Of a stretch of 64,000 nt of DNA, positions 53,311 through 59,735 are shown piece after piece. Below the pieces are notes generated by a model. That model had not been told where the DNA came from, searched no databases, and saw only the letters and a program-made list of their open reading frames with translations. How positions within the stretch are numbered: the first letter of the stretch is position 1; each line of letters opens with the position of its first letter. This DNA is from Escherichia coli (GTDB lineage Bacteria; Pseudomonadota; Gammaproteobacteria; Enterobacterales; Enterobacteriaceae): the NCBI RefSeq assembly GCF_030384885.1, contig NZ_CP128613.1; one strand, written 5' to 3'. The translations under genes were made by a program, and so were the position numbers.

Positions 53311-53403
53311 GGTGAGGTGGCCGAGAGGCTGAAGGCGCTCCCCTGCTAAGGGAGTATGCGGTCAAAAGCTGCATCCGGGGTTCGAATCCCCGCCTCACCG
53401 CCA
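53311..53403 (+). tRNA. serV: tRNA-Ser (anticodon GCU)
   Basis: Cloverleaf with long variable arm, anticodon loop cuGCUaa, 3' CCA; read directly. Confidence 0.9.
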
Positions 53404-53406
53404 TTT

Positions 53407-53483
53407 GCATCCGTAGCTCAGCTGGATAGAGTACTCGGCTACGAACCGAGCGGTCGGAGGTTCGAATCCTCCCGGATGCACCA
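53407..53483 (+). tRNA. argV: tRNA-Arg (anticodon ACG), copy 1
   Basis: GCATCCG acceptor stem, anticodon loop ctACGaa, CCA end. Confidence 0.9.
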
Positions 53484-53682
53484 TATTCTCCGAAATCTTC
53501 AGCGATGAAGGTGTCGAAGAGGTGGCGGTACTAACCGCAAGCACCAGGGAGGATAACGTTGCTTTAGCAACGGGCCGAAGGGCGAGCCGTAAGGCGAGTA
53601 ATCCTCCCGGATGCACCATCTCTTACTTGATACGGCTTTAGTAGCGGTATCAAAAAATCTGCAGTAAAGTAAGTTTCCCGAT

Positions 53683-53759
53683 GCATCCGTAGCTCAGCTG
53701 GATAGAGTACTCGGCTACGAACCGAGCGGTCGGAGGTTCGAATCCTCCCGGATGCACCA
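53683..53759 (+). tRNA. argY: tRNA-Arg (ACG), copy 2
   Basis: Identical 77-nt sequence to copy 1. Confidence 0.9.
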
Positions 53760-53955
53760 TATTCTACGAAATCTTCAGCGATGAAGGTGTCGAAGAGGTG
53801 GCGGTACTAACCGCAAGCACTAGGGAGGATAACGTTGCTTTAGCAACGGCCAGAAGGGCGAGCCGCAAGGCGAGTAATCCTCCCGGATGCACCATCTCTT
53901 ACTTGATATGGCTTTAGTAGCGATATCAATATCAGCAGTAAAATAAATTTCCCGA

Positions 53956-54032
53956 TGCATCCGTAGCTCAGCTGGATAGAGTACTCGGCTACGAACCGAG
54001 CGGTCGGAGGTTCGAATCCTCCCGGATGCACC
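53956..54032 (+). tRNA. argZ: tRNA-Arg (ACG), copy 3
   Basis: Identical 77-nt sequence to copy 1. Confidence 0.9.
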
Positions 54033-54231
54033 ATATTCTACGAAATCTTCAGCAATGAAGATATCGAAGAGGTAGCGGAATTAACCGCAAGCACCAGGAA
54101 GGATAACGTTGCTTTAGCAACGGCCCGAAGGGCGAGCCGCAAGGCGAGTAATCCTCCCGGATGCACCATCTCTTATTTGATATGGCTTTAGTAGCGGTAT
54201 CAATATCAGCAATAAAGTAAGTTCTCCCGAT

Positions 54232-54308
54232 GCATCCGTAGCTCAGCTGGATAGAGTACTCGGCTACGAACCGAGCGGTCGGAGGTTCGAATCCTCCCGG
54301 ATGCACCA
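54232..54308 (+). tRNA. argQ: tRNA-Arg (ACG), copy 4
   Basis: Identical 77-nt sequence to copy 1. Confidence 0.9.
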
Positions 54309-55625: not shown

Positions 55626-57209
<1,584 letters not shown>

Positions 57210-57217
57210 CAGAAAAG

Positions 57218-57290
57218 AAAAAGGCCACTCGTGAGTGGCCAAAATTTCATCTCTGAATTCAGGGATGATGATAACAAATGCGCGTCTTTC
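57218..57290 (-). ncRNA. micA: MicA (SraD) small regulatory RNA
   Basis: Minus-strand sequence gaaagacgcgcatttgttatcatcatccctgaattcagagatgaaattttggccactcacgagtggccttttt matches MicA as I recall it; 3' hairpin plus U-tract. Confidence 0.85.
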
Positions 57291-57323
57291 ATATACTCAG
57301 ACTCGCCTGGGAAGAAAGAGTTC
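57291..57323 (-). promoter_or_regulatory. SigmaE-type promoter of micA
   Basis: Minus-strand GAACTC-N16-TCTGA immediately upstream of the MicA 5' end. Confidence 0.6.
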
Positions 57324-57358
57324 AGAAAATTTTTAAAAAAATTACCGGAGGTGGCTAA

Positions 57359-57874
57359 ATGCCGTTGTTAGATAGCTTCACAGTCGATCATACCCGGATG
57401 GAAGCGCCTGCAGTTCGGGTGGCGAAAACAATGAACACCCCGCATGGCGACGCAATCACCGTGTTCGATCTGCGCTTCTGCGTGCCGAACAAAGAAGTGA
57501 TGCCAGAAAGAGGGATCCATACCCTGGAGCACCTGTTTGCTGGTTTTATGCGTAACCATCTGAACGGTAATGGCGTTGAGATTATCGATATCTCGCCAAT
57601 GGGCTGCCGCACCGGTTTTTATATGAGTCTGATTGGTACGCCAGATGAGCAGCGTGTCGCTGATGCCTGGAAAGCGGCAATGGAGGACGTGCTGAAAGTG
57701 CAGGATCAGAATCAGATCCCGGAACTGAACGTCTACCAGTGTGGTACTTATCAGATGCATTCGTTGCAGGAAGCGCAGGATATTGCGCGTAATATCCTGG
57801 AACGTGACGTACGCATCAACAGCAACGAAGAGTTGGCGCTGCCGAAAGAAAAGTTGCAGGAATTGCACATCTAG
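57359..57874 (+). CDS. luxS: S-ribosylhomocysteine lyase LuxS, 171 aa
   Basis: [23 protein letters not shown] ... HTLEHL metal motif. Confidence 0.95.
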
Positions 57875-57918: not shown

Positions 57919-59031
57919 TTACCTGTCAGTCACCCGATATTCCACGCTATGTGCTTCATCAGGTTGAGGAACTTCCAGCCTTGAGGCCATCCGCATCACG
58001 ACCGCTTCAGGAACGGCATACTCGCGCCTGGCATTTTGCTGCTTCCATTGCGCCCATGGCACTTCCAGATAAACGATTTTTACTCGTGCGCCGTAAGCCG
58101 TAAACAGACTGATGAGCTGGCTACGCAGTTGGCGGGTAATGTTCGTTGCATTCCAGATGAACGGCTTTTTCTGGCGTAAAAAAACGCGCGCCTCTTCTTT
58201 TGCCTGTTGCACAATACGCCCGGTCGCGGTTTTGTCGTCCGGGCTGGCATTGATTCGCCGCCGCATATCATCAAGGCTGATAACGTCCATTCCCTGGCAC
58301 TGTTCACTGATATAGCGATCTTTGCCCATACCCGGTAAGCCACACAGCAAAATGACCTCAAAAGGTTCAGCCTCCCAGGGAACAAAATCAGGAGAACTTT
58401 GTTCATGGGTCAGATAATGCCAGCGTGCGGAATCAGACACGAACGAGCGCACTTTTCCCCAACACTGTTGCTCCTGGCAAAATAGCTCGAACAGATCGAT
58501 GCGTTCCAGCATTGATTGCTGATCATGACAATGGCGACCAAGCAGATCGGCACGAGCAAGCAAAGCGAGCAGACGCGTGTCGATACGCATTGCAGCCGTG
58601 AGCAGCAAACGCTCCGGTTCCGGACGTTCTAGTAACCATAGCGGTAACCCATGCAGACGCACCAGTGCAACAATTTGCTCGCGTAGCACGAACGGCGTCG
58701 GGATATCGCGCCATAAAATTTGTCGGGCCGTCAATTCACCCCGACGAGCATGACCAGGAGACTGAATACGTCCGTTTTCCTGCACGGTAGTACTGCGCTT
58801 TTCAACGTCATGCAATAACGCCGCCGCCCATAAAATTTCCTGCTGCTGAGCGGGGAGTTGCTGGAACTCTGGCAGAGCCACGAGTGCATTCAGCACCATT
58901 TCAGTATGCACACCAACGTCGCCTTCACCATGATGCTCCGGGTCTTGCGGCGTATTATGCATATCCTCAACCCAGCTAAAACGCTGGCGTAGCGTCGACC
59001 AGCGTTTGTCGTCGGTAAGTTGCCAAATCAT
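57919..59031 (-). CDS. HD-domain phosphohydrolase fused to a P-loop polynucleotide-kinase-like domain, 370 aa
   Basis: N-terminal HD signature ([10 protein letters not shown] ... LLHDVEK); C-terminal Walker-A-like GLPGMGKD and DVISLDD; not present between luxS and emrB in K-12 as I recall. Confidence 0.6.
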
Positions 59032-59735
59032 GACTGTTCTCCATAAGCGAACTCATGGGCCATCCGCGCCCGTCGCCAGTGGCGTTTCCAGTGCTCGGTG
59101 GTTTTGACATGATTTTTGCGTACATACTTGAAGACGTTATGCGAAAAGTCAGCGACGGAAAACGCATCACTATTCCGGCTGACAATGCCTTCCAGCGTAC
59201 AGGGTTGTCCGGTTTGCGTATCCCAGGGATCGAACGCACCGCGCGCATTGGTCAGCGCCAGAAAATCACGTTGCCAGCTTTTTTCATCATTCCCCGGCTG
59301 CGGGCCGGAGATTTCGGGAACGCAGGGGAAATCAAACAGAGCGGCGTAAAACTGCACCTCTTCCCAGCTCAGCCACATATCCTGGCAGCGAACGGCAAAC
59401 AGATAAAAATCCTGCTCCAGGGCGCGATATTCAATCGAATGAACGGCATAAAGATTTTCACCAAACAACTCCAGATCGCCGAGATCGTTTTTCAGCAGTT
59501 GCCAGCGTTGGCGAATTTTATAGGTCCATGCCGATTGTGTAGGCGCGGCATGGGAACGGGCAAACACGCCGTAGCGGTTAAGGCAGTTATTTTCACCGTC
59601 GAGTTTTTCAGTATGTACCAACTGCGAAATTGCCTGCATATCTTGCCAGTAACTGGCGTTAATGCGGTCATCGCTGGTGGTGCCAGGGGAGAAGGGGTAA
59701 TGCCAGGTTCTCCCGTATTTACGTTGGGTATTCAT
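59028..59735 (-). CDS. Small ATP-dependent nucleic-acid (RNA) ligase-like nucleotidyltransferase, 235 aa
   Basis: Covalent nucleotidyltransferase motifs in order: [41 protein letters not shown]; 4-bp overlap with the downstream gene. Confidence 0.6.

Follow-up and report, generated by a model that had tools for sequence, protein, structure and literature searches.

The gshA-luxS spacer of an Escherichia coli chromosome carries the small RNA gene micA and its sigma-E-type promoter

Work from 2001-2007 onwards established the small RNA (sRNA) MicA as a repressor of outer-membrane protein synthesis that is under sigma-E control and depends on Hfq. RybB is the other sigma-E-dependent, Hfq-binding sRNA of enterobacteria. 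Like MicA, it is reported to have a sigma-E promoter and a Rho-independent terminator, to carry a single-stranded 5' seed that is conserved, and to repress omp mRNAs (Papenfort 2006; Gogol 2011). RybB is unlike MicA in that its sequence and genomic location are unrelated and it is not antisense to the leader of a neighbouring gene. The interaction of MicA with ompA is Hfq-dependent and has compensatory-mutation support, and further targets include ompX, lamB, phoPQ and others (PMC4618604). Among E. coli sRNAs, MicA has also been described as the first for which action in cis as well as in trans is known (PMC2956633).

Here we describe the gshA-luxS spacer of a 64-kb stretch of E. coli DNA (the window, 64,000 nt), in which an initial annotation had placed MicA and a sigma-E-type promoter at 57218-57323. 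We conclude, with a probability of about 0.97, that the locus is E. coli micA, encoding the sigma-E-driven, Hfq-dependent omp repressor that is also antisense to the luxS leader. The locus is an already known and thoroughly characterised sRNA with its promoter, and its recognition was correct but ordinary. This explanation draws on identity, structure, promoter motif and conservation, synteny and in silico ompA pairing, which were computed here, and on published evidence for dependence on sigma-E and Hfq, for the repression of targets and for the processing of luxS mRNA. The sequence analyses yielded no counter-evidence to the micA identity.

Identity, neighbourhood and structure of the small RNA

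The entire window was scanned with the covariance models of all 4227 Rfam families. MicA (RF00078) matched at 57219-57290 on the minus strand with 83.9 bits (E 1.4e-11; family gathering score 41) in a full-length alignment (model positions 1-75 of 75), and the only other matches were five tRNAs. The initial annotation had read the minus strand as MicA and had named an Rfam match as the check; the score obtained is about twice the gathering score, and the sequence is that of the curated K-12 gene base for base. Read directly, the minus strand at 57218-57290 is GAAAGACGCGCAUUUGUUAUCAUCAUCCCUGAAUUCAGAGAUGAAAUUUUGGCCACUCACGAGUGGCCUUUUU (also given as GAAAGACGCGCATTTGTTATCATCATCCCTGAATTCAGAGATGAAATTTTGGCCACTCACGAGTGGCCTTTTT). 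The curated K-12 record places the ncRNA micA (b4442, "small regulatory RNA MicA") between luxS and gshA and maps onto the same 57218-57290 on the minus strand. Identity to E. coli K-12 MG1655 is 100% over the 191 bases from 57190 to 57380, the whole gshA-luxS spacer included. A 271-bp stretch around micA was found in 5423 of 5426 complete E. coli genomes, with an identity of at least 99% in 4680.

The gene and its neighbours are the following.

55653 to 57209, plus strand: gshA, convergent with micA (ORF list and annotation of identical DNA in E. coli genomes)
57218 to 57290, minus strand: micA, 73 nt per the K-12 annotation, +1 at the G at 57290 (Rfam and K-12 identity)
57359 to 57874, plus strand: luxS, divergent from micA (ORF list and annotation)

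The gshA stop codon lies about 13-14 nt from the MicA hairpin, and 68 nt separate the MicA +1 from the luxS start codon. For comparison, 120 loci from other Enterobacterales genomes (among the genera Citrobacter, Salmonella, Enterobacter, Pantoea, Erwinia, Serratia, Yersinia, Rahnella, Hafnia and Edwardsiella) were retrieved by an exact 21-nt seed corresponding to MicA nt 8-28; the invariance of nt 8-28 across these loci is therefore by construction. On the opposite strand, gshA was found on the MicA 3' side at all 113 of the 120 loci with gshA detected and luxS on the 5' side at all 117 with luxS detected, mostly 67-90 nt from the MicA +1 to the luxS start codon. The full gshA-micA-luxS arrangement is present at 110 of the 120 loci, and one flanking gene went undetected at each of the remaining 10. 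Coordinates and strands in the window, together with this arrangement, agree with the intergenic placement of MicA and its divergence from luxS that had been described.

The PGAP RefSeq annotation of strains 720632 and 2013C-4282 has no feature between gshA and luxS; the DNA of this unannotated spacer matches the curated K-12 micA locus without a difference. Raw sequence is enough to recognise a 72-nt sRNA together with its alternative-sigma promoter, and automated RefSeq annotation of matching strains omits micA.

The RNA comprises the following parts.

57267 to 57290, minus strand: single-stranded 5' target-binding region, MicA nt 1-24 (mainly unpaired in the centroid fold)
57248 to 57267, minus strand: stem-loop 1, nt 24-43, CAUC-C-CUG / AAUU / CAG-A-GAUG (MFE and centroid folds, Rfam consensus structure)
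57241 to 57247, minus strand: A/U-rich linker AAAUUUU between the two hairpins (read directly from the sequence)
57218 to 57240, minus strand: Rho-independent terminator, hairpin GGCCACU-CACG-AGUGGCC (57240-57223) and U-run (terminator scan)

The predicted fold has an energy of -20.5 kcal/mol (z = -2.94 versus shuffles) and consists of a mostly open 5' region, an internal hairpin, an A/U linker and the terminator hairpin (nt 51-68). The features that define membership of MicA, namely a free 5' region, an internal stem-loop, an A/U linker and a Rho-independent terminator, are all present. Stem-loop 1 spans nt 23-44 in the MFE fold and nt 24-43 in the Rfam consensus, and the A/U-rich linker between the hairpins is the published Hfq-binding site of MicA (PMC4618604).

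Conservation of the structure was assessed by aligning 73 distinct MicA RNA sequences and scoring them against the Rfam structure. The structure is 99% paired over these sequences, with changes on both sides in 4 of 14 pairs, and the pairing and covariation values were reached by none of 500 shuffles and by no slid register. Stem-loop 1 has 98.8% of its cells paired across the 73 sequences, and three of its seven pairs have changed on both sides. The terminator hairpin is 99.2% paired and contributes the clearest case, its innermost pair, which occurs as A-U, U-A and C-G. Most stem pairs never vary, so that the covariation support, though genuine, is slim and comes from four pairs. The two Rosenbergiella loci have the MicA copies that diverge most within the fetched set; stem-loop 1 is rebuilt in them, with CCUGACAACUAAGAUG in place of CCCUG....CAGAGAUG, and their linker contains a C.

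Six-frame translation lists two short ORFs in the region, of 48 aa (57146-57292, minus strand) and 46 aa (57231-57371, plus strand), and either could be taken to mean that the locus encodes a small protein. This is almost certainly not the case. The minus-strand ORF begins with an ATG at 57292-57290, so that a transcript starting at 57290 would include only its G, and it extends antisense into the gshA coding sequence. Loop and linker indels across species are not multiples of three, and the region matches a non-coding RNA model, RF00078, over its full length.

Elsewhere in the window, a tRNA cluster at 53311-54305 on the plus strand begins with a longer tRNA, named tRNA-Ser in the matching RefSeq records, and continues with four identical copies of tRNA-Arg at a spacing of about 275 nt. 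These tRNA genes are also present in K-12, where one spacing is shorter (139 nt start to start), which indicates that the count or length of the repeat unit varies between strains. Two overlapping ORFs of 370 and 235 aa lie between luxS and emrB (57919-59735, minus strand); in K-12 and many other strains luxS is directly followed by emrB. Residues 226-355 of the 370-aa ORF ("ATP-binding protein" in RefSeq) form a kinase-like domain, Pfam AAA_33, and the 235-aa ORF has a Pfam RNA_ligase domain. The insertion occurs in 999 of 5426 complete E. coli genomes, with a 100% match only in strain 2013C-4282, and looks like an accessory RNA-repair-type cassette.

The sigma-E-type promoter and the terminator hairpin

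Upstream of the RNA, the following promoter elements were assigned.

57330 to 57340, minus strand: AT-rich upstream element, T6 at -50 to -45 and A-rich on to -40 (conservation)
57316 to 57323, minus strand: sigma-E -35 element GAACTCTT, -33 to -26 (pattern match and conservation)
57297 to 57302, minus strand: sigma-E -10 element GTCTGA, -12 to -7, followed by the 6-nt discriminator GTATAT (pattern match and conservation)

The sequence GAACTC-N16-TCTGA at 57323-57297 on the minus strand is the single match in the 64-kb window, both strands included, where shuffles give an expectation of 0.02. Six bases, the discriminator GTATAT, lie between TCTGA and the +1 G at 57290. A sigma-E promoter was defined by a GGAACTT-like -35 element that includes AA and a -10 element TCNNA whose C is invariant, separated by about 16 bp, and by a discriminator about 6 bp long, and GAACTC-N16-TCTGA-N6-G(+1) at 57323-57290 has all of these. 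The published micA promoter likewise has a 16-bp spacer, a 6-bp discriminator, the -35 "AA", the invariant -10 C and an AT-rich element upstream of the -35 (PMC1851643).

Promoter conservation was measured in 104 distinct upstream sequences from other Enterobacterales, anchored at +1 and ungapped. The loci had been retrieved through a seed inside the RNA and not through the promoter, so that the upstream DNA is an independent sample. Within the -35 block, AAC (-32 to -30) and TT (-27/-26) are each 99-100% conserved. The -10 block retains G-T-C-T at -12 to -9 and A at -7 at 93-100%, with the C at -10 at 99%, and position -8 varies between G, T and C. Columns -25 to -13 of the spacer are mostly weakly conserved, at about 0.1-0.9 bits. 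Further upstream, positions -50 to -45 are 85-99% T and -41/-40 about 85% A. The span 57218-57323 of the initial annotation thus comprises the gene and the core promoter without this conserved AT-rich element (about 57330-57340).

A motif that is unique in the window, conserved boxes and agreement with PMC1851643 all uphold a sigma-E-type promoter directly upstream of MicA, as had been described. MicA was undetectable in an rpoE deletion and was induced by rpoE overexpression, in a K-12 background whose sequence is identical to that of the window (PMC1851643). Sigma-E dependence of the micA promoter is taken here from that published work. Given the Rfam match, the unique promoter motif and the terminator site, the description of sRNA and promoter was accurate in its coordinates and not a product of chance.

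A terminator scan of 56900-57700 found a sole terminator-like site, on the minus strand, consisting of a 7-bp GC-rich hairpin GGCCACTCACGAGTGGCC at 57240-57223 followed by TTTTTCTTTT. The hairpin and U-run lie where the MicA transcript had been said to end. The same hairpin had been proposed to serve gshA as well, which would make it an intrinsic terminator that works in both directions. Its position some 13-14 nt past the gshA stop codon, a symmetry sufficient for folding in the plus-strand RNA and the convergence of gshA and micA at every related locus with gshA detected speak for this, as does the statement of Udekwu that no gshA-luxS polycistronic message has been reported (PMC2956633). 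A bidirectional terminator has a U-run on each strand, and here the hairpin is followed by UUUUUCUUUU on the minus strand and by AAAAUUUC on the plus strand. The plus strand has AAAATTTC after the hairpin and no U-run, and the terminator scan found no plus-strand terminator in 56900-57700. The same asymmetry was seen across 116 sequences (115 loci and the window), in all of which the 8 nt after the stem contain 6-7 T on the MicA side against 0-4 T on the gshA-sense side. Moreover, the luxS P1 transcript, which starts at -332 inside gshA, crosses the hairpin into luxS (PMC2956633), and a full-text literature search found no paper that calls the hairpin a bidirectional terminator. With a U-run on the MicA strand alone and P1 read-through, the hairpin is not a canonical gshA or bidirectional terminator; a termination role for gshA is unlikely, and this part of the initial annotation is not supported as it was worded. 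For gshA mRNA, the hairpin could at most act as a leaky pause site or stabilise the 3' end. It is commonly assumed that a hairpin lying between two convergent genes ends transcription of both, which does not apply at micA-gshA.

Pairing with ompA and overlap with luxS transcripts

MicA nt 7-24 (CGCGCAUUUGUUAUCAUC) pair with positions -22 to -5 of the K-12 ompA leader (GGAUGAUAACGAGGCGCA), covering the GAGG Shine-Dalgarno sequence. With RNAduplex, nt 1-24 reached -21.7 kcal/mol against this leader, where shuffles gave a mean of -14.35 (sd 2.36) and 11 of 2000 reached -21.7; the pairing is in silico and uses the K-12 copy of the leader, not that of the present strain. Full-length MicA had been run against the same leader with RNAduplex and returned a long, meaningless duplex that unfolds both RNAs and is equalled by 32 of 1000 shuffles; it was replaced by the 24-nt 5' region. 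The computed ompA pairing agrees with the published interaction, which makes the textbook explanation the best one.

According to this explanation, envelope stress would activate sigma-E, which would drive transcription of MicA. The -35 and -10 elements, 16 bp apart, and the AT-rich element upstream would set the start at the G at 57290, and the transcript, about 72 nt long, would end at the hairpin and U-run at 57240-57218. With Hfq, its unstructured 5' end (nt 7-24) is expected to pair with the mRNAs of ompA and other envelope proteins at their ribosome-binding regions, so that translation would be blocked, mRNA decay would be faster and less outer-membrane protein would be made under envelope stress. 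Because micA lies inside the long luxS 5' UTRs on the opposite strand, perfect complementarity may also allow RNase III cleavage of luxS transcripts.

The relation to luxS rests on one further feature.

57027 to 57358, plus strand: long luxS 5' UTR (P1, start at the G at -332), antisense across the whole of micA (coordinates transferred from PMC2956633)

The luxS P1 transcript was mapped to a G at -332 from the luxS AUG (Udekwu 2010, PMC2956633), and the window base at this position is a G (57027), inside gshA. P1 and P2 transcripts span the entire micA gene, and the shortest luxS species, R3, has its 5' end at about 57276-57277 and overlaps MicA nt 1-14/15 (PMC2956633); De Lay and Gottesman 2009, as quoted in PMC2956633, give a luxS-MicA overlap of 15 nt. 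The initial annotation had called MicA "antisense-adjacent" to the luxS 5' region. The antisense orientation holds; mere adjacency does not, since the published luxS 5' UTRs overlap MicA, which on the evidence of those transcripts makes it a true cis-antisense RNA besides a trans-acting one.

The plus strand carries C-TATGAT shortly before the G at -332 (57013-57027), within the 3' end of gshA. This fits the published sigma-S-type luxS P1 promoter (extended -10, C at about -13; PMC2956633) and would place a promoter of the downstream gene within the gshA coding sequence. No recognisable promoter was defined for the R3 5' end (PMC2956633). A sigma-70 scan of 56900-57700 returned one weak plus-strand site, ATGATA-18-TATACT at 57268-57297, where 0.8 are expected from shuffles; it fits neither published luxS 5' end and was rejected.

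Could the main role of the locus then be cis-antisense control of luxS, the AI-2 synthase gene of quorum sensing, instead of trans control of omp mRNAs? The position opposite the luxS leader, kept at every one of the 117 loci with luxS detected and at a gap of mostly 67-90 nt, would be expected on such a reading, as would the processing of long luxS transcripts, which depends on MicA and RNase III; accumulation of R3 needs both (PMC2956633). LuxS protein, however, was unchanged on MicA overexpression (PMC2956633), and a 2015 review describes the effect of MicA on luxS as unclear (PMC4618604). The trans targets ompA, ompX, lamB and phoPQ are backed by compensatory mutations (PMC4618604), and the most conserved part of MicA matches the ompA ribosome-binding site. 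We therefore regard a primary role in luxS control as very improbable and retain trans control of omp mRNAs, with the antisense relation to luxS beside it.

A more speculative reading concerns the DNA itself. The micA start (57290, leftward) faces the R3 luxS 5' end (about 57277, rightward) with an overlap of 14-15 bp, so that the promoter interference suggested by the initial annotation is plausible and sigma-E activation might occlude the proximal luxS promoter, adding DNA-level interference to the antisense RNA. The short distance from the MicA +1 to the luxS start, kept across Enterobacterales, is compatible with occlusion, which we nevertheless consider improbable. If it were true, envelope stress would be coupled to AI-2 synthesis through the DNA itself.

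Comparison with known systems

The closest known system is the MicA of E. coli K-12 itself (SraD, b4442, RF00078), from which the present copy is indistinguishable in sequence, promoter, flanking genes and orientation. There is no difference within the micA locus, and the strain departs from K-12 only further downstream, at the two-gene insertion between luxS and emrB. The present copy is identical to the reference copy, and the known picture is unchanged. MicA resembles the cis-antisense RNAs that are processed by RNase III, such as those of plasmid copy control and toxin-antitoxin systems, in that its complementarity to the long luxS 5' UTRs is complete and these transcripts are reportedly cleaved in an RNase III-dependent manner (PMC2956633). 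It is unlike them in that its best-established targets are encoded in trans, require Hfq and are imperfectly paired.
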